A stretch of 12,886 nt of DNA from a virus. Taxonomy: Duplodnaviria; Heunggongvirae; Uroviricota; Caudoviricetes. The stretch lies in the IMG/VR virus record IMGVR_UViG_2703718860_000015; one strand, 5' to 3'. Positions 3,572 to 12,886 of this stretch are shown one piece after another. Position numbers and translations under genes: made by a program. The notes beneath the pieces are model-generated. The model saw only the letters and a program-made list of their open reading frames with translations. It did no database searches and was not told where the DNA came from. Position 1 is the first letter of the stretch, and every line of letters begins with the position of its first letter.

Positions 3572-3606
3572 TTGGAATTACTTGGAATATTTTGTTGGAA
3601 TATTCT
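3572..3606. repeat. Three direct repeats TTGGAAT(A/T)T, candidate integrase arm-type (P'-like) binding sites in attL
   Basis: cTTGGAATTA (3571-3580), cTTGGAATATT (3581-3591), TTGGAATATTc (3596-3606), 47-81 bp from the tRNA 3' end, overlapping the int stop codon and last codons. Placement is analogous to lambda P' arm sites. Confidence 0.35.
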
Positions 3607-4603
3607 GGGGTAATGGTACATCCAGTGTGGGTGAGATCTTTACTTTTCTATCATAGATTAGCACCTGTCCTTCGGTCTTGTGACCAGAGAAAAGTTGCTT
3701 ATCCCGGCTACTACCTTCGTAATCTGATATCCCCTTGGCTTTAAGGTCATGGAATGTAAAATCCGTCGCGATCCCTGATATTTGTCCAGCCAAATTTCTT
3801 GCCTCAACCCACATTTCATTAAATCCTTTATACATGTAACGGTTGCCGTACTGATTGCTGATTACATAGGCTGACTTGGGTAGCTGTTTAGCTTTTTCTA
3901 TAACTGATTGCAGACGGGGAGTCCAGGCTTTTATCTGTTTTTTTCCTGTTTTACCTTGCTGGATAAAGATCCCGTCGTTTCCGATCTGTTCCCATTTCAG
4001 AGACAACACATCGGAAATCCTTGCTGCGCACAGGTATGCAATTTCCATTGCGATAAAAACAGGCACAGGAGCCACGCTTAATACGGCCTGGTATTCTTTG
4101 TCAGTCACATAGCGCTCTCGGTTTTTGGCCTTGAATTTACTTACACCGGCACAAGGATTAGCCTTTACATACCCTCGTTCATACCCCCAACTGTAAACGC
4201 GTGACATGCTGCTTTTTTCATGGTTTGCCTGCGTTTTACTCTGCTCGCCCCTTTTGTCCATGTATCGTCTGATGTGCTCTGGTTTTACAGAATCGGCCAG
4301 CACCTTACCGAATACGGCCAGCAGTTTTTTTTGATGTTGCAGATAATCTTTTTGCGTTCTGGGACTAAGATCGCTGTAATAGGCGCTGGCGAGAAATTTT
4401 TCCCACAAACGCCCAAATGTCATTGCGTGATCATGATGGTTAACCGTTTCTTCATATTTTTTCCATAATGCGGCTAAACCATCCTTGATTGCAGTTAAGG
4501 TTACAGATTCTCTGGATGTTGGTTTCCATACATAACTATATTTATTGGGATATACCTTTGGCGGTAATTTTTCGTGTTCGGGATTTTTCCTTCGTCTTCC
4601 CAT
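3578..4603 (-). CDS. int: Phage integrase, tyrosine recombinase of the lambda Int family, 341 aa
   Basis: ATG at 4603; N-terminus MGRRRKNPEHEKLPPKVY resembles lambda Int MGRRRSHERRDLPPNLY (arm-binding domain). C-terminal catalytic region has R (CAARISD), K (QQGKTGKK), H (FHDLK), H (SGHK) and Y (LIYDRK). Adjacent to tRNA and reading toward it. Confidence 0.95.
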   Translation of the reverse strand: MGRRRKNPEHEKLPPKVYPNKYSYVWKPTSRESVTLTAIKDGLAALWKKYEETVNHHDHAMTFGRLWEKFLASAYYSDLSPRTQKDYLQHQKKLLAVFGKVLADSVKPEHIRRYMDKRGEQSKTQANHEKSSMSRVYSWGYERGYVKANPCAGVSKFKAKNRERYVTDKEYQAVLSVAPVPVFIAMEIAYLCAARISDVLSLKWEQIGNDGIFIQQGKTGKKQIKAWTPRLQSVIEKAKQLPKSAYVISNQYGNRYMYKGFNEMWVEARNLAGQISGIATDFTFHDLKAKGISDYEGSSRDKQLFSGHKTEGQVLIYDRKVKISPTLDVPLPQNIPTKYSK

Positions 4604-4806
4604 TAGATCGCACCGAAATCAGGTTCAGCCTCACGTGGTGGTAAAGTGTTTCTACAGGTAAACAGTTCCCGACTGACGATCGGTTTTCCACTACGATTGG
4701 TATAGAACGGAAGCCCATTTTTTATTAACCAGTTGCGCTGGTGGCTTGCATATTTGCAGCCCGTTAATATTAGCAATTCATCTTCGGTTAAAAATAAGCT
4801 GCTCAT
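4603..4806 (-). CDS. xis: Excisionase-like protein (small DNA-binding, DUF4224-like), 67 aa
   Basis: ATG at 4806; protein MSSLFLTEDELLILTGCKYASHQRNWLIKNGLPFYTNRSGKPIV. Its stop TAA (4605..4603) overlaps the int ATG by 1 nt (TAATG), implying translational coupling, as is typical for xis-int pairs. Confidence 0.7.
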   Translation of the reverse strand: MSSLFLTEDELLILTGCKYASHQRNWLIKNGLPFYTNRSGKPIVSRELFTCRNTLPPREAEPDFGAI

Positions 4807-4864: not shown

Positions 4865-7309
4865 TTAAAAATCAGCCTGATTTGGGAACAGTTTTTGCCA
4901 GATAGCTGAAACGTATTTTGCCTGGTAACGCGCATCGTGCAGGGCATTATGGCGTTCACCCTCAAATGTGGTGACGTTGCGGGCATCGAAATCCATCACC
5001 AACCCCAGAGCGACCATCGTTCTTACATCGCGATCATTGGTGTAACGCCACGGGCAGGGGATCTCCTGCCGTTCATATGAACGGCGTAAAATCACGTTGT
5101 CGAAGTTGGCTCCATTTCCCCAGACCTGAACAAAAAACTCACCGGAGTTTTCGTCTATAAATTCCCGTAATTGTAAAAGCGCATCATCAAGCGGTATTCG
5201 ATCAGCTAAAATGGCGGCACGGGCTTCGCCAGAGCGTTGAAGCCACCATTCGATGGTGCTTATGTCTACAGTGCCGCCACATGTACCCATATCAATTATT
5301 TTGCTGAATTCAGGCCCCTGCTCTCCGGTTTGTGGATCGAAAAATACAGCGCCTATTGAGGCTATTGGCGCATCAGGATTTTTGCCCATTGTTTCAAGGT
5401 CAATCATCAGATGGTGCCACAACCTGCTGGTGGATGTGATTTCACGATGACCGTTCACCTTAATTAAGGGATTTGCTGTCTCGCCTGTTTCATTATTGCC
5501 ATTGGCATGTTGATCGCCTTCGGTGCACTCCTTGTTCGGGAGTCCGGCACTTTCCATTTCCTCCGGATCTTTTTCCCGGGCTTCATCCTGGCTTTCTTCG
5601 TTGAATGTCTCCTGGTATGTTGCGTCGCCCATCACCGCGCCACAGTCAGGACAGTTGCCGCCGCCGGTCTGACCGCAGGCTGTGCAGACTTTTTCCGGTT
5701 CCTGTTGCGCTACTGGTTCAGGCTGTTTCGTTTCTGGCTCGTTTTGTTGCGCATTTGGACTGTGTTGTTCCGCTTTATGGCCTTTCTGTTCCGTTTCTTG
5801 CTGGTTATGGTTCACAGAATCGCGGGTTTCAATCCCCTTCACCCATTTTGGATCATTCGGGTCGCTAATCCCTTCAACAAATTCTCCGTGAGAAGCAGCC
5901 AGTAATTTATCTGCATCGACAGGATTTTTGGGTGGAATGTTTTTCCTGGCTTCATAGAGTTCTGCACGCAGTTTCTGATATTTCGCATCAACAGAATTTA
6001 TCTGTGGCTGAGCATCCATCGACTGCGTGTCCTGATTATGTTCAGTTGTATCCGGTTCCACTGCTTCAGTCGTTGCCTGTTCATCTGCCATTGCGCCAGA
6101 TGGCTGCGGTTTTTCTTCATCATCCTGTTTTCCTTCTTTTGTTACACGCTGCGGCATTGGAGCAGAGGAGCGACCGCAGGCAATATCCACGATTTCTGGA
6201 TCAGGGTTGGCATGGTCGGTTTCGGTCAGTACTTTGTTCAGATATTCGGTAACACGGTGGGGAGTAGCCTCGATACCAATTGGTGCTTCTTTCACGGACG
6301 CAACCACTATCGCGCGGGAATAATCCAGGTGACCAGGCATGGCGATGAATTTGTCACGAAAAACAGAAAAGGGCGGCTTATTCTCTGAAACGATTTCTTC
6401 AATGCGTTTGGCGTGTGCCGGATGTGGATTGTAAATATCGATGTCCATTGAACGGGCCAGAACGCCAGCGGCAACGTCACGTTCCACTGACGCATCATCG
6501 TGGACAAAACCTTCACCGCGATCGGTAAGAATTCCTCCGCCAGCATTAGCGCCGGATGGCGTGCGGCTGATGCGTAAAACACGATTTCCTTTCATCCACT
6601 CTTTTGTCAGCAGACCTCGATCGGTATAGTCAGCGTCCAGGTATGCTTCGAAAAAAGCAGTCATTAACCCCAGACTGGAATTAACGGGATTAGGGAAAAC
6701 TTTGTCTGTGTCGCGTACCAGTTTGTGAAGGTCGCGAATCTCCAGCGGGTCGAGCAGCTTTGTGTTGTGGGAAATAGCCAGGGCAGTAACAGCAGGCAGT
6801 TCTTCAGCTCGTGCGATATGTAATGCCTGAAGTTCTTCCCGTGAAACGTGCGTTACCGGTTTTTCGCTGCCATGTTGCGCAAGCCAGCGAATGGGCAGTT
6901 CCTGACCGGAAATCGGCAGGAGCATATTATCCTCAATCTCAGCCATGTCTTCGCCATTGACGTTGGTATTGTCAGTGCTGGCTGGTTTGTCCTGAACTGA
7001 GGGGGAAGGCGCTATAAATATCATTGTGATGCCATCTTCTCCGCCTTTTTCATAGCGGTTGCAGAATTCGGTATCAAACACACCTTCAGGCGGCAGGTCA
7101 TTAACAATGGGCAAATTCACGCGAACAGGTTTTTTGAAATCCTCTTCGTCAAATCCAGCATCGTCCATTGCGACAACACCCCGTGATATTGCAACCGATA
7201 ATTTTTTTGCTGTGCGCCAGTAAAAACCGCCTTTAATCCCAAGGCGTTTTCTGACTTTGTCATTTTTGGCTTCGTAATACAGTGCAATTTCTTCTTTATC
7301 AGTGCTCAT
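4865..7309 (-). CDS. Large phage exonuclease (exodeoxyribonuclease VIII / RecE-like N-terminal region, C-terminal DnaQ-type DEDDh 3'-5' exonuclease domain), 814 aa
   Basis: ATG at 7309 preceded by GAGG. C-terminal about 190 aa carry Exo I (MIDLETMG), Exo II ([13 protein letters not shown]) and Exo III (HNALHDARY) motifs. A CxxC-x9-CxxC zinc-ribbon-like motif ([18 protein letters not shown]) and a long acidic low-complexity linker precede it. Occupies the exo/recE position of the early-left operon. Confidence 0.85.
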
Positions 7310-9908: not shown

Positions 9909-10409
9909 TTAGGCGCGACGACCCTTTTGCGCGGCTAGCCATCGCGCAACGATTTCTTCAATTGATTCTTTTTTCTCCTTCATTTCCTTAAGCATTTTCT
10001 CTTTATCTTCTTTGGGGAAAGCCCTGAACGTCTGGAGCAAATCCCGCTCCATGGGGTCTATATTAAACGGAAGTTCGTTTTCCGATTGTTCCATATCTGC
10101 AGATATAGTGACAACATTGTCCTCCCCAGATTCTTGGGGATACATCCTTACAATTTGTAACAACTCGGCCATATCTGGTCTGATTGACTCGGGAGGAACT
10201 TGCAGCAACCCTGCGAACTTGATAACAGCCTCAAGATTTAAAGGTGTCTGACCATTTAGATAATGGCTTACAGCTCCCTGTGTCGAAAATCCCAGAATTT
10301 CTGCCGCACGCTCTTGGGTTAACCCTAGTTGATTTTTTTTCGCCGTCCAGATTTCTTTCAGTCTCTGGGCGGCTTGCAGGTCGATCTCTGACAGGGATTT
10401 TCTTTTCAT
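9909..10409 (-). CDS. paaR: cI-like prophage repressor, XRE-family HTH regulator (PaaR2-like), 166 aa, no S24 peptidase domain
   Basis: N-terminal HTH (LTQERAAEILGFSTQGAVSHYLNGQ) and a C-terminal charged helical region (KEDKEKMLKEMKEKKESIEE); no LexA-like Ser/Lys autocleavage domain. Divergent from the cro-like gene, and 17 nt upstream of the antitoxin gene on the same strand. Confidence 0.88.
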   Translation of the reverse strand: MKRKSLSEIDLQAAQRLKEIWTAKKNQLGLTQERAAEILGFSTQGAVSHYLNGQTPLNLEAVIKFAGLLQVPPESIRPDMAELLQIVRMYPQESGEDNVVTISADMEQSENELPFNIDPMERDLLQTFRAFPKEDKEKMLKEMKEKKESIEEIVARWLAAQKGRRA

Positions 10410-10516
10410 ACCTTCAATTCTAATAAGATTATTAATCTCTTTGAAATAGTGATGCTATTTACTTTTAAAAATAACAATGCTATTAATGATCGTGATGACA
10501 TCACATGAGGTGAACA
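10410..10516. promoter_or_regulatory. Divergent promoter/operator region (OR-like) between repressor and cro-like gene
   Basis: AT-rich 107-bp intergenic region with palindromes TAATAAGATTATTA (10421-10434) and GTGATGACATCAC (10492-10504), repeated ATGCTATT motifs (10452-10459, 10477-10484), and a candidate rightward promoter (-35 TTTACT 10458-10463, -10 TATTAA 10481-10486) ahead of the cro-like GAGGTGA ribosome-binding site. Confidence 0.5.
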
Positions 10517-10792
10517 ATGAATCTTGGAGAATATTTGCATCATTCCGGTATAACTCAGAAGCATTTTGCTGAAATTGTTGGGGTAACCCAAGGGATGGTA
10601 AGCCATGTCATTACCGGACGGGCGAAACTTACGGGGGAAAAAATTTTACGCTGGTGCGAAGCAACAGGCTGGATAGTAACTCCGCACGAGATTGATAGCA
10701 GTACTTATCCCAACCCAACCGACGGCTTACCTGTCGAGTATCAGGCTAACACACAACCAGAGGCGGGGGTGATTCATGAAAATCAAGCATGA
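10517..10792 (+). CDS. ydaS: Cro-like HTH regulator (YdaS-like), 91 aa
   Basis: ATG at 10517 with GAGGTGA upstream; HTH signature ITQKHFAEIVGVTQGMVSHVITGR; divergent from the repressor gene. Confidence 0.85.
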   Translation: MNLGEYLHHSGITQKHFAEIVGVTQGMVSHVITGRAKLTGEKILRWCEATGWIVTPHEIDSSTYPNPTDGLPVEYQANTQPEAGVIHENQA

Positions 10793-11201
10793 ACACATCC
10801 GCATGGCAATGAATGCCTGGGCGTATCCAGACGGTGAGAAAGTTCCAGCAGCTGAAATAGCCCGGACTTATTTCGAGCTGGGGATGACGTTCCCGGAACT
10901 GTACGACGACAGCCATCCGGAAGCCCTGGCTCGTAATACCCAGAAAATTTTCCGCTGGGTGGAGAAGGACACGTCTGATGCTGTTGAAAAAATTCAGGCG
11001 CTGTTACCGGCGATCGAAAAGGCGATGCCGCCTTTGCTGGTGGCCCGTATGCGCAGTCACAGTTCTGAATATTACCGGGAGATCGTCGAACGACGGGATC
11101 GGCTGGTGAAAGATGTGGATGATTTTGTCGCTGTAGCGATCGCCTGGGGCACCCTGACTAACAGTGGTGGTCAGCCTGGTAATGCAGTTGTTGTGCATTG
11201 A
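10776..11201 (+). CDS. ydaT: YdaT-like protein (functional CII equivalent in Rac/CP-933P-type prophages), 141 aa
   Basis: Protein begins MKIKHEHIRMAMNAWAYPDGEK, as YdaT-family proteins do; overlaps the 3' end of the cro-like gene by 17 nt; sits in the cII position. Confidence 0.85.
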   Translation: MKIKHEHIRMAMNAWAYPDGEKVPAAEIARTYFELGMTFPELYDDSHPEALARNTQKIFRWVEKDTSDAVEKIQALLPAIEKAMPPLLVARMRSHSSEYYREIVERRDRLVKDVDDFVAVAIAWGTLTNSGGQPGNAVVVH

Positions 11202-11269
11202 CCAACAATATTTATACCGGATTTCTTCCGGAAGTTCGTGGGTAAAGTTCGGTATCAGAAGAGGTGAGT

Positions 11270-12307
11270 ATGGCTAATGCCTGGCTCAGATTGTGGCATG
11301 ACATGCCAAATGACCCCAAGTGGCGAACGATTGCCAGGGTATCAGGACAGCCAATCGCAACAGTGATGGCAGTGTATATCCATCTTCTGGTGAGCGCGTC
11401 ACGAAATGTCACGACATGTCACGGCGTGTCACTACGTGGTCACATTGATGTCACGACGGAAGATTTAGCAAGTGCGCTTGATGTGACGGAAGACGTAATT
11501 GATTCAATTTTGCATGCAATGCAGGGGCGGGTTCTGGATGGTGACCTTATTTCCGGATGGGAAAAACGTCAGGTGCTGAAAGAGGACAATGGTAACGTTT
11601 CGCAAACGGCAAAATCCCCGGCAGAGCGCAAGAGAGCGCAGCGGGAGCGCGAAAAGCTGCGGAAATATGATGCTGATTGTCACGATGAGTCACGACGTGT
11701 CACGCATCTGTCACGACAAGTCACGACAGATAAAGATACAGATACAGAATTAAACCCCACACATAACGCGCGCATGCGCGAGAGTGCTCCAACCGGTGAG
11801 TCGAATGGTGCGTCGTTGCAGACAGCCGAACCTGAATTCCTGGACGGCCTGAGCGAACCGATCGGGAAATTTTCGATGACCACTGTCTGGCAGCCGTCGC
11901 CGGATTTTCGACAACGGGCAGCAGTGTGGGGTATGGCTCTGCCTGAGCCGGAATTTACACCTGCAGAGCTTGCCGCATTCCGGGATTACTGGATGGCGGA
12001 GGGGAAGGTTTTCACGCAGGTTCAGTGGGAGCAGAAATTTGCCCGCCACGTGCAGCACGTCAGGGCACAGGTAAAACCAGTCAGCAAGGGGGTAAGCCAT
12101 GCAGCATCAGGTGGCACGGCATCACGGGCAGTTCAGGAAATCCGGGCAGCACGCGAACAGTGGGAACGTGAAAACGGATTTATCAGCAACGGAAACGGCC
12201 TGGAAGCTGTGGGAGCTTATGGGGGAGGTGTATTCGAACCGCTGGACACAGAAGAACGGGGCCGCACCTTCGAAGCTCTGGATTGCCCAGATTGGCGCGA
12301 TGACTGA
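11270..12307 (+). CDS. Phage replication initiator (O-like), contains the origin iterons, 345 aa
   Basis: ATG at 11270 preceded by GAGGTGA (the track ORF begins at GTG 11264). N-terminal W/R-rich DNA-binding-like region (ANAWLRLWHDMPNDPKWRTIARV). Two clusters of GTCACG iterons lie within the coding sequence, as in the lambda O gene. Confidence 0.85.
   Translation: MANAWLRLWHDMPNDPKWRTIARVSGQPIATVMAVYIHLLVSASRNVTTCHGVSLRGHIDVTTEDLASALDVTEDVIDSILHAMQGRVLDGDLISGWEKRQVLKEDNGNVSQTAKSPAERKRAQREREKLRKYDADCHDESRRVTHLSRQVTTDKDTDTELNPTHNARMRESAPTGESNGASLQTAEPEFLDGLSEPIGKFSMTTVWQPSPDFRQRAAVWGMALPEPEFTPAELAAFRDYWMAEGKVFTQVQWEQKFARHVQHVRAQVKPVSKGVSHAASGGTASRAVQEIRAAREQWERENGFISNGNGLEAVGAYGGGVFEPLDTEERGRTFEALDCPDWRDD
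11398..11459 (+). repeat. Origin iteron cluster 1: six GTCAC(G) repeats at 10-11 bp spacing
   Basis: GTCAC starts at 11398, 11408, 11418, 11428, 11439 and 11450 (spacings 10, 10, 10, 11, 11), inside the O-like gene. Confidence 0.7.
11679..11757 (+). repeat. Origin iteron cluster 2 (five GTCACGA repeats) plus adjacent AT-rich element
   Basis: GTCAC starts at 11679, 11689, 11699, 11710 and 11720 (spacings 10, 10, 11, 10), followed by the A/T-rich ATAAAGATACAGATACAGAATTAAA (11730-11755), consistent with a DNA unwinding element. Confidence 0.7.
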
Positions 12308-12761
12308 ACAGCAAATCCGGATGGTCTGCCGTCAGTGCATGGACCGCTGCCGGGCGGGTGAAACGTGGCCCCCGGACCTGGCTGAGTTTGTTGCACTGAT
12401 TTCGGAGAGTGGGGCAAATCCATTTGGTCTTACGGTGGATGCCGTGATGGAAGAGTACCGGCGCTGGCGCAATGAATCCTGGCGATACGACGGGAGTGAT
12501 AAATACCCGTGGCCACAGCCTGTGCTGTACCACATCTGCCTCGAAATGCGTACCAGAGGGATTGAGCGCCAGATGACGCAGGGTGAGTTAAAACGACTTG
12601 CGGAACGGCAACTGACGAAATGGGCAAAGCATGTTGGTAACGGGATGAGTGTTCCGCCAGTGCGACGACAACTGGAAGGGGCGAAACACCCTCAAGGGCC
12701 AACGCCAATTGAACGGCTGAAACAGGAATACGAACGCCGGAAGGCAGCTGGTTTTATTTGA
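12099..12761 (+). CDS. Replication protein P-like (helicase loader), start uncertain (12099, 12219 or 12300)
   Basis: Central and C-terminal region (AMTEQQIRMVCRQCMDRCRAGETWPPDLAEFVALISE ... YPWPQPVLYHICLEMRTRG ... ELKRLAERQLTKWAKHV) resembles lambda P as I recall it (FLPSPGQFVAWCRE ... YPWKSNAHYWLVTNLY ... ELRRKAADELVHMTARI). AAGGGGG lies 6 nt before ATG 12099; ATG 12300 overlaps the O-like stop. Confidence 0.65.
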   Translation: MQHQVARHHGQFRKSGQHANSGNVKTDLSATETAWKLWELMGEVYSNRWTQKNGAAPSKLWIAQIGAMTEQQIRMVCRQCMDRCRAGETWPPDLAEFVALISESGANPFGLTVDAVMEEYRRWRNESWRYDGSDKYPWPQPVLYHICLEMRTRGIERQMTQGELKRLAERQLTKWAKHVGNGMSVPPVRRQLEGAKHPQGPTPIERLKQEYERRKAAGFI

Positions 12762-12794
12762 ATCTGAGAAACGATTTTGTCGGAGGAAATTTTA

Positions 12795-12886
12795 ATGGAA
12801 ACCGTATTTGACGCACTGAAAGCACTGAAAAAAGCCTCTTCACAGGTAGTGGCATCGCGCCTTGGAATCAGCCGTGAAGATGCGGT
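12795..12886 (+). CDS. Hypothetical phage protein, 5' fragment (continues beyond window)
   Basis: ATG at 12795 with GGAGG 8 nt upstream; open to the window end (METVFDALKALKKASSQVVASRLGISREDA...). Confidence 0.4.
   Translation, partial: METVFDALKALKKASSQVVASRLGISREDA

Follow-up and report, generated by a model that had tools for sequence, protein, structure and literature searches.

A probable replication origin with two iteron arrays inside the initiator gene of an Escherichia coli Rac-like prophage

The stretch of viral DNA considered here is a single record from IMG/VR (IMGVR_UViG_2703718860_000015; 12,886 nucleotides, the whole of which is referred to as the window) and is the early region of a lambdoid, Rac-like prophage of Escherichia coli. 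It probably carries the replication origin of this prophage, embedded in the prophage's own initiator gene, which runs on the plus strand from 11270 to 12307 and encodes a protein of 345 amino acids (aa). Within this gene there are two arrays of short direct GTCAC(G) repeats (iterons), the second of which is directly followed by an A+T-rich tract. Iteron origins situated within phage initiator genes are already textbook knowledge; as judged by comparison with its relatives, the two-part layout described here is common to a large and so far uncharacterised family of phage initiators. No description of this initiator family, of short iterons spaced one per helical turn or of the two-array layout was found in the literature searched, subscription journals lying outside that search.

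The first array, cluster 1 (11396-11457, plus strand), consists of six head-to-tail units of 10-11 base pairs (bp) in which GTCAC begins at 11398, 11408, 11418, 11428, 11439 and 11450, in steps of 10, 10, 10, 11 and 11 bp; the second, cluster 2 (11677-11727, plus strand), consists of five, beginning at 11679, 11689, 11699, 11710 and 11720, in steps of 10, 10, 11 and 10 bp. Mean spacing is 10.4 bp in cluster 1 and 10.25 bp in cluster 2, approximately one helical turn, and the clusters lie 281 bp apart from start to start, with 229 bp between the last copy of cluster 1 and the first copy of cluster 2. The core is GTCACG in nine of the eleven units, the exceptions being GTCACT at 11428 and GTCACA at 11439; the bases around it are near-random and the core profile is identical for the two clusters. 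A scan of positions thus bears out the initial annotation, which had reported eleven GTCAC(G) units, six plus five, spaced 10-11 bp in clusters about 280 bp apart, the second followed by an AT-rich stretch (11728-11754 is ~70% A+T, against 52% for the window). It had also reported that both clusters are translated in frame, and the open reading frame from the ATG at 11270 to the stop at 12307 does read ...RNVTTCHGVSLRGHIDVTTE... and ...DCHDESRRVTHLSRQVTTD... across them. When the window was shuffled 2000 times with its dinucleotides preserved, GTCAC copies spaced 10-11 bp apart reached a longest run of one in 1936 shuffles and of two in 64, and when any 5-mer was allowed the longest phased run was two to three in 300 such shuffles; a chance origin of the arrays is excluded, because shuffles never exceed a run of three and six are observed.

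Two copies in reverse orientation, GTGAC on the plus strand, went unmentioned in the initial annotation and are found at 11483 and 11541. The first of these (11483-11487, minus strand) stands alone 33 bp past cluster 1 and is kept in most relatives, and those relatives that retain the peptide DVT at this point all use the GTG codon for its valine, giving GTGAC on the plus strand; the copy at 11541 is not kept. When set against phage vB_EcoS-640R1 (locus L001), which has the common four-copy form, cluster 1 in the window carries an insertion of 21 bp (10 + 11 bp; two iterons, seven codons), which is also present in L004.

The arrays are selected as DNA rather than for the peptides that they encode. 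Entropy at four-fold-degenerate third positions was calculated from a gap-free codon alignment of 24 gamma- and beta-proteobacterial sequences, and it is 0 to 0.25 bits at four-fold sites within the cores of cluster 1 and 1.3-2.0 bits at sites outside the array region, whilst the four-fold codon that falls between iterons 2 and 3 has a value of 1.72 bits. Invariant four-fold sites within cores, set against near-saturation elsewhere, indicate purifying selection on the DNA itself. Furthermore GTCAC cores occupy all three reading frames, where they are read as VT, (C/G)H and SR, and as each 10-bp step shifts the frame by one the conserved peptides SRNVTRGHxxVT and CHxxSRxVT result. It is scarcely conceivable that the periodicity is a repeated peptide motif, or an effect of codon usage, with no function in the DNA; the VT and SR peptides do recur in the translation, but a period of 10-11 bp is not a multiple of three, the four-fold sites are frozen in the cores with saturated neighbours, and what the arrays encode is a low-confidence loop and a disordered linker.

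This last point comes from an AlphaFold2 model of the protein, in which a winged-helix domain (aa 1-100) has a predicted local distance difference test score (pLDDT) above 90 save for one loop; the hairpin or loop of aa 46-60 scores ~70 and is flanked by helices above 90. A basic helix follows (aa 117-134), then disorder from about aa 135 to 200, where the linker has a pLDDT below 50, and then a DnaT-like domain. Cluster 1 encodes a surface loop or hairpin of the N-domain (aa 43-62), and cluster 2 together with the tract encodes part of the linker (aa 137-162), hence both arrays are placed where the protein tolerates sequence imposed by the DNA.

The layout was followed through 63 diverse genomic loci, 80 near-identical viral contigs and several phage records. 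The family defined by the N-terminal part of the initiator (N-part) comprises at least 880 protein clusters (E <=0.001) from Proteobacteria and beyond, with C-terminal parts (C-parts) freely swapped, and relatives carry the NCBI label 'phage replisome organizer'. At identities above ~57%, all relatives carry GTCAC in the same two positions, about 128-159 and 386-417 nt into the gene counted from the start codon, with a typical complement of 4 + 3-4 copies; they come from Enterobacterales, Aeromonas, Pseudomonas, Bordetella, Chromobacterium, Acidovorax, Stenotrophomonas and others. In distant relatives there is no GTCAC, and the same two places are occupied by CGAACGC (19 loci), GTAACG (5) or GTGACG (1), the class of core always matching between cluster 1 and cluster 2 of a locus. 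The two arrays are found at the same codon positions in gamma-, beta- and alpha-proteobacteria, sphingomonads included, and in metagenome-assembled genomes (MAGs) of Acidobacteria. Comparison with related prophages, a check that the initial annotation had named, therefore finds the two-array layout to be family-wide, with the tract after cluster 2. Phage Evi, with a complete genome of 40 kb, has no phased runs of GTCAC other than the two arrays of its initiator gene.

Cluster 2 is recognisable in 48 related loci, with three to seven copies, and 42 of these have two or more phased copies of the matching core in the cluster 1 region. Loci L024 and L027 have four cluster 1 copies each, spaced 21 bp apart and so missed by a count of phased copies, whilst L041 (0+7 copies), L055 (0+4), L064 (0+5) and L045 (0+3) have cluster 2 and the tract without cluster 1. 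Calculated from positions, the separation between the final copies of the two clusters is 249, 258-261, 267 or 270 bp in relatives, which rules out a constant helical phase between the clusters; the helical phasing described in the initial annotation holds inside each cluster and does not extend from one to the other. L024 and L027 (GTAACG) share a common protein backbone and common iteron positions with L026 (GTCACG), with every copy of the core switched. These three are prophages of Pantoea, Enterobacter and Erwinia that differ consistently at few residues (GKPAKSGA…REY as opposed to GRPALTAA…RKY) and they form a natural specificity-swap pair. Elsewhere in the family, a Gemmataceae MAG (L058) has its upstream CGAACGC array at offsets 192-222, ~60 bp further into the gene than other relatives, where it overlies the sequence for the second helix of the winged-helix motif; it may be an independent gain or a relocation, a suggestion to be taken with caution given a single MAG contig. 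In L050 and L061 the N-domain is fused to a different C-part (…YVYYVATTDG…GISRNPWAR…), by appearance a nuclease of the GIY-YIG/T5orf172 type, and as no iteron arrays were detectable at these two loci the N-domain may there serve a use other than at an origin.

Directly after cluster 2 lies a purine-rich, A+T-rich tract of GATA(A/C)A hexamers (11728-11754, plus strand; AGATAAAGATACAGATACAGAATTAAA) which we propose as the DNA-unwinding element. The region of the tract is the least stable 30-bp window in the gene, with a nearest-neighbour dG of -32.1 against a mean of -40.4 (standard deviation 3.4) for the window. Across the 48 loci the sequence that follows cluster 2 has on average a coding-strand purine content of 77% and an A+T content of 69%, where the locus background is 44% A+T, and two bases past the last GTCACG core of cluster 2 there is always AGATAAAGATAAAGA, or a purine-rich equivalent in hosts of high G+C content. 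Among near-identical E. coli prophages (L067-L146) the tract varies from three to nine hexamers and cluster 2 from four to six copies, and changes in hexamer number add or remove DK and DT dipeptides in the linker. Approximately 15 bp to the right of the tract there is a G+C-rich palindrome (11769-11780; CGCGCATGCGCG) whose membership of the origin is uncertain. In close relatives it takes the form CGCGCACGTGCGCG or CGCGCGCGTGCGCG, or is 6 bp shorter, and on account of this variation and shortening it was dropped as a conserved origin element; it resembles slippage-prone (CG)n more than a fixed element.

No unwinding tract accompanies cluster 1, and this bears on how the bipartite layout arose. 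The initial annotation had offered two explanations, an origin duplication or two initiator-binding arrays, and of these it is the second that fits. The two clusters have the same core in the same orientation, as would be expected of a recent duplication of a single origin array, yet such a history is very improbable given that cluster 1 lacks the tract, that the layout is found at the same codon positions family-wide and that the clusters have unrelated flanks; the only recent event in the window is the 21-bp expansion of cluster 1 by two iterons.

The view of the initial annotation that the repeats are iterons of an origin within the initiator gene gains support from selection on synonymous sites, from cores in all three frames and from the concerted switching of cores, as well as from the tract directly after cluster 2, the restriction of phased runs in Evi to the two arrays and an N-domain common to all GTCAC loci. 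The most parsimonious binder of the iterons would be the N-part of the initiator, perhaps through its basic helix; when 2.5 kb on each side was considered, the N-part was the only protein common to 26 of 26 loci of the GTCAC class. The basic helix is encoded at 11618-11671 on the plus strand (AERKRAQREREKLRKY) and is a candidate specificity element. Its pattern follows the iteron class, being ERKRxQRER, ERAKAWRE or ERAREYRER, a correlation that is confounded with phylogeny, and a role in specificity is therefore suggested with reserve. For the same reason, and as the comparison of L024 and L027 with L026 leaves several candidates, we name no class-determining residues.

Cluster 2 and the tract most likely form the core of the origin, since four lineages keep them without cluster 1 and since the tract, the interdomain linker and the P-type loader downstream match the layout of the lambda origin (ori). 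Under the mechanism that we propose, the N-terminal winged-helix region, probably with the basic helix that follows it, would recognise the 6-bp core GTCACG, and with one core per helical turn several initiator molecules would be placed on one face of the DNA. The array bound at cluster 2 would then destabilise the GATAAA tract, and the DnaT-like C-domain together with the lambda-P-like loader would recruit the host DnaB helicase. Cluster 1, with the reverse copy at 11483, would provide a second array ~230 bp upstream whose likeliest role is cooperation with cluster 2, as through looping of the DNA between them into a larger initiator-DNA complex. No IHF-like sites were found between the two clusters. 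DnaA boxes (TTWTNCACA, one mismatch allowed) numbered 21 against 27 expected, with none in or beside the arrays, and promoters and terminators in and around the arrays were not above chance; the one promoter-like match in cluster 2, on the minus strand, is GTGACA resembling TTGACA.

Several observations weigh against this picture. The arrays lie inside the coding sequence of the N-domain, so their linkage to it is physically forced and is no proof of binding by itself, and the helix of the winged-helix motif that normally reads DNA (aa 74-84, TEDVIDSILHA) is acidic, which leaves the reading surface ambiguous. The phase between the arrays is not constant, which weakens any rigid looping, some lineages do without cluster 1, which is hence not essential to the family, and L032, L033, L044 and L049 show no arrays of the four core motifs scanned. 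It might then be asked whether the repeats bind some other factor, a host protein or a Cro-like or CII/YdaT-like regulator, for purposes of regulation and not replication, as the initiator is a putative binder and its acidic helix is atypical for DNA recognition. This would seem improbable. The N-domain is encoded at all 26 GTCAC-class loci, as compared with one to four of them for each of the cro-like, CII-like, DnaT C-part, P-like and repressor proteins (cro-like and CII-like at two, repressor at one), and the core changes with the lineage of the N-domain within one host order (L024, L026 and L027), which argues against a conserved host factor. Furthermore there is no promoter-like site above chance in or near the arrays, and the presence of an adjoining tract of the unwinding type, situated in the interdomain linker of an initiator, is the anatomy of an origin.

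Cluster 1 is most likely an auxiliary array of the same sites; it is selected as DNA and co-evolves with cluster 2. It may be a helper, acting through cooperative assembly or looping, or it may be a restraint, acting through titration, handcuffing or a block to transcription; the sequence is compatible with either. Precedents exist for both. In Stx phages the extra upstream iterons were found to be required for efficient replication (PMC7466680). In the origin of chromosome 2 of Vibrio cholerae separate origin and regulatory iteron sets, ori2-min and ori2-inc, act by titration and handcuffing (PMC6090056), and separate plasmid iteron sets acting in the same two ways are documented (PMC5397158). 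A negative control array is possible though not the favoured reading; cluster 1 would throttle initiation by titrating the initiator, by handcuffing with cluster 2 in cis or on a sister molecule, or by blocking RNA polymerase on its way through the initiator and loader genes. Such a role would suit an array that shares its core with cluster 2 yet lacks an unwinding tract, is dispensable in some lineages and is situated within the transcribed initiator gene 128 nt from its start codon, and it would parallel the documented regulatory sets. Throttling of copy number would be of little benefit to lytic phage replication, the upstream iterons of the Stx phages are not inhibitory, and no sequence feature separates positive from negative action.

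A more far-reaching version of this idea, which we regard as rather doubtful, is that cluster 1 is a built-in control element, a plasmid-style brake or switch that senses the dosage of the initiator in a widespread class of lambdoid prophages. Were it correct, the domain reading the switch would carry it within its own reading frame, and the shifted upstream array of L058 could be an independent gain that would imply selection for a two-array design.

Whichever way cluster 1 acts, the protein encoded around the arrays is only in part like lambda O. The initial annotation had called it O-like, which is apt for its role and layout and does not hold for homology, since in a Pfam scan of the full initiator DnaT was the sole match, with none to lambda O, and no Pfam model matched the N-domain alone even at E values up to 10. 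A search with aa 1-134 gave no NCBIfam match and the N-part had no sequence relative in the PDB, its one profile match being to PHROG 10469 'DnaD-like helicase loader' (E 8.3e-07). The C-domain is DnaT-like, with the region for its single-stranded DNA-binding domain at 11870-12070 on the plus strand (aa 201-267). The match to the DnaT model of NCBIfam, NF002770, scores 94.1 bits against a cut-off of 201 and is confined to aa 194-269; being partial and below the cut-off it indicates that the initiator borrows the DnaT domain but is not DnaT. At present the gene is annotated as 'DnaT-like domain protein' or 'primosomal protein I' only.

In the remainder of the window an integrase (3578-4603), an excisionase (4603-4806), a RecE-like exonuclease (4865-7309) and a repressor (9909-10409) are encoded on the minus strand, and a cro-like gene (10517-10792) and a YdaT/CII-like gene (10776-11201) precede the initiator on the plus strand. 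Downstream on the same strand is a lambda-P-like helicase loader (12300-12761; Pfam Phage_lambda_P PF06992, E 6.9e-16; PHROG 109 'P-like helicase loader'). The mechanical start of its open reading frame at 12099 is probably unused and the gene probably starts at the ATG at 12300, which overlaps the stop of the initiator gene (ATGACTGA); ydaV of phage Rac-SA53 begins at the equivalent position. The overlap suggests translational coupling of loader and initiator.

The initiator gene is itself a mosaic. From 11205 to 11748 the window shares ~84% identity with phages that include vB_EcoS-640R1 and Evi, in which the initiator carries another C-part, and from 11728 to 12400 it is ~88% identical to ydaU/ydaV of Rac-SA53, whose initiator lacks GTCAC arrays and has another N-part. 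Similarity passes from the one set of relatives to the other at the shared ATAAAGATACAGAT tract, which is also the tract proposed for unwinding; with the breakpoint at this position, the N-part travels with both arrays as a single module, and the C-part with the loader as a second that is exchanged separately. In vB_EcoS-640R1 (2569-3639 of L001) and Evi (22368-23438) the N-part and arrays are kept with a different C-part, and there is no gene for a P-like or DnaC-like loader directly downstream, the next gene being lygF; the absence of an adjacent loader implies that the route of helicase recruitment differs between modules. Of 5426 complete E. coli genomes 651, some of them from STEC strains, contain at least 80% of the region 10400-12886, and the initiator-origin module is thus common in this species.

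The family lends itself to a natural test of the function of a second iteron array in phage origins, and the comparative data amount to a ready-made specificity code, with GTCACG, GTAACG, GTGACG and CGAACGC classes and near-isogenic pairs included. Uses that can be envisaged are the prediction of incompatibility or cross-activation between co-resident prophages, the construction of orthogonal vectors of the lambda-dv type and the annotation of prophage origins. The arrays are also a clean case of a DNA signal dictating protein sequence in three frames.

Amongst the closest known systems is the ydaU/ydaV region of the Rac prophage, as the gene from the GATAAAGATACAGAT tract onward and the loader are ~88% identical to ydaU/ydaV of Rac-SA53. 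Rac has an active origin, oriJ (PMC3945230), the position of which at sequence level was not found in the literature searched. YdaU of Rac-SA53 (L002) differs from the initiator described here in its unrelated N-part and in having no GTCAC arrays. Just upstream of the shared tract Rac-SA53 has a perfect 10-bp inverted repeat, TGTTCAAACA/TGTTTGAACA (2441-2473 of L002), which may be the binding site of that other type of initiator and perhaps part of oriJ.

In RepA_N replicons an iteron origin lies inside the rep reading frame between two domains. The DnaD-like 'replisome organizers' of Gram-positive phages and plasmids are a further parallel, relatives of the initiator bearing that name in NCBI. 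Unlike them, the family described here has no Pfam or NCBIfam match to its N-domain and no PDB relative, its hosts are proteobacterial, and it combines a DnaT-like C-domain and a P-like loader with two arrays.

Iteron replicons with separate arrays include P1 (incC/incA), F (ori2 incB/incC) and RK2 (oriV). As with ori2-min and ori2-inc of V. cholerae (PMC6090056), there are here two sets of the same repeat, one adjoining an A+T-rich region (here the proposed unwinding tract) and the other a few hundred bp off (229 bp in the window), where it could titrate or pair. The arrays of iteron replicons are intergenic and flank the rep gene, their initiators belong to other families and they serve the copy control of stable replicons, whereas in the lambdoid prophage both arrays lie inside the initiator frame.

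A further parallel is with lambda and the Stx phages. The lambda ori has four iterons in one array and an AT-rich tract in the middle of gene O, and Stx phages have six iterons to lambda's four, adding 13 residues to the protein (PMC7466680). As in those phages, the proposed origin lies in the middle of the initiator gene, between the segments for a DNA-binding N-part and a C-part, and consists of direct iterons and then an A+T-rich tract; iteron number varies and adds residues, in this case seven for 21 bp, and the N-part with ori is one exchangeable module with the C-part and loader as another. As in lambda, a loader of the lambda-P family is directly downstream and the gene is situated in the early-right operon after cro- and cII-like genes. 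Unlike that of lambda, the initiator has no homology to O and its C-domain is DnaT-like. The iterons of lambda are units of ~18-19 bp with internal dyad symmetry that are bound by O dimers, in contrast to the head-to-tail units of 10-11 bp found here, which have an asymmetric 6-bp core. Finally, whilst cluster 2 and the tract encode a flexible linker between the N- and C-domains as the lambda ori does, there are in this prophage two arrays 230 bp apart, and the upstream one, cluster 1, falls within the sequence that encodes the presumed DNA-binding domain.

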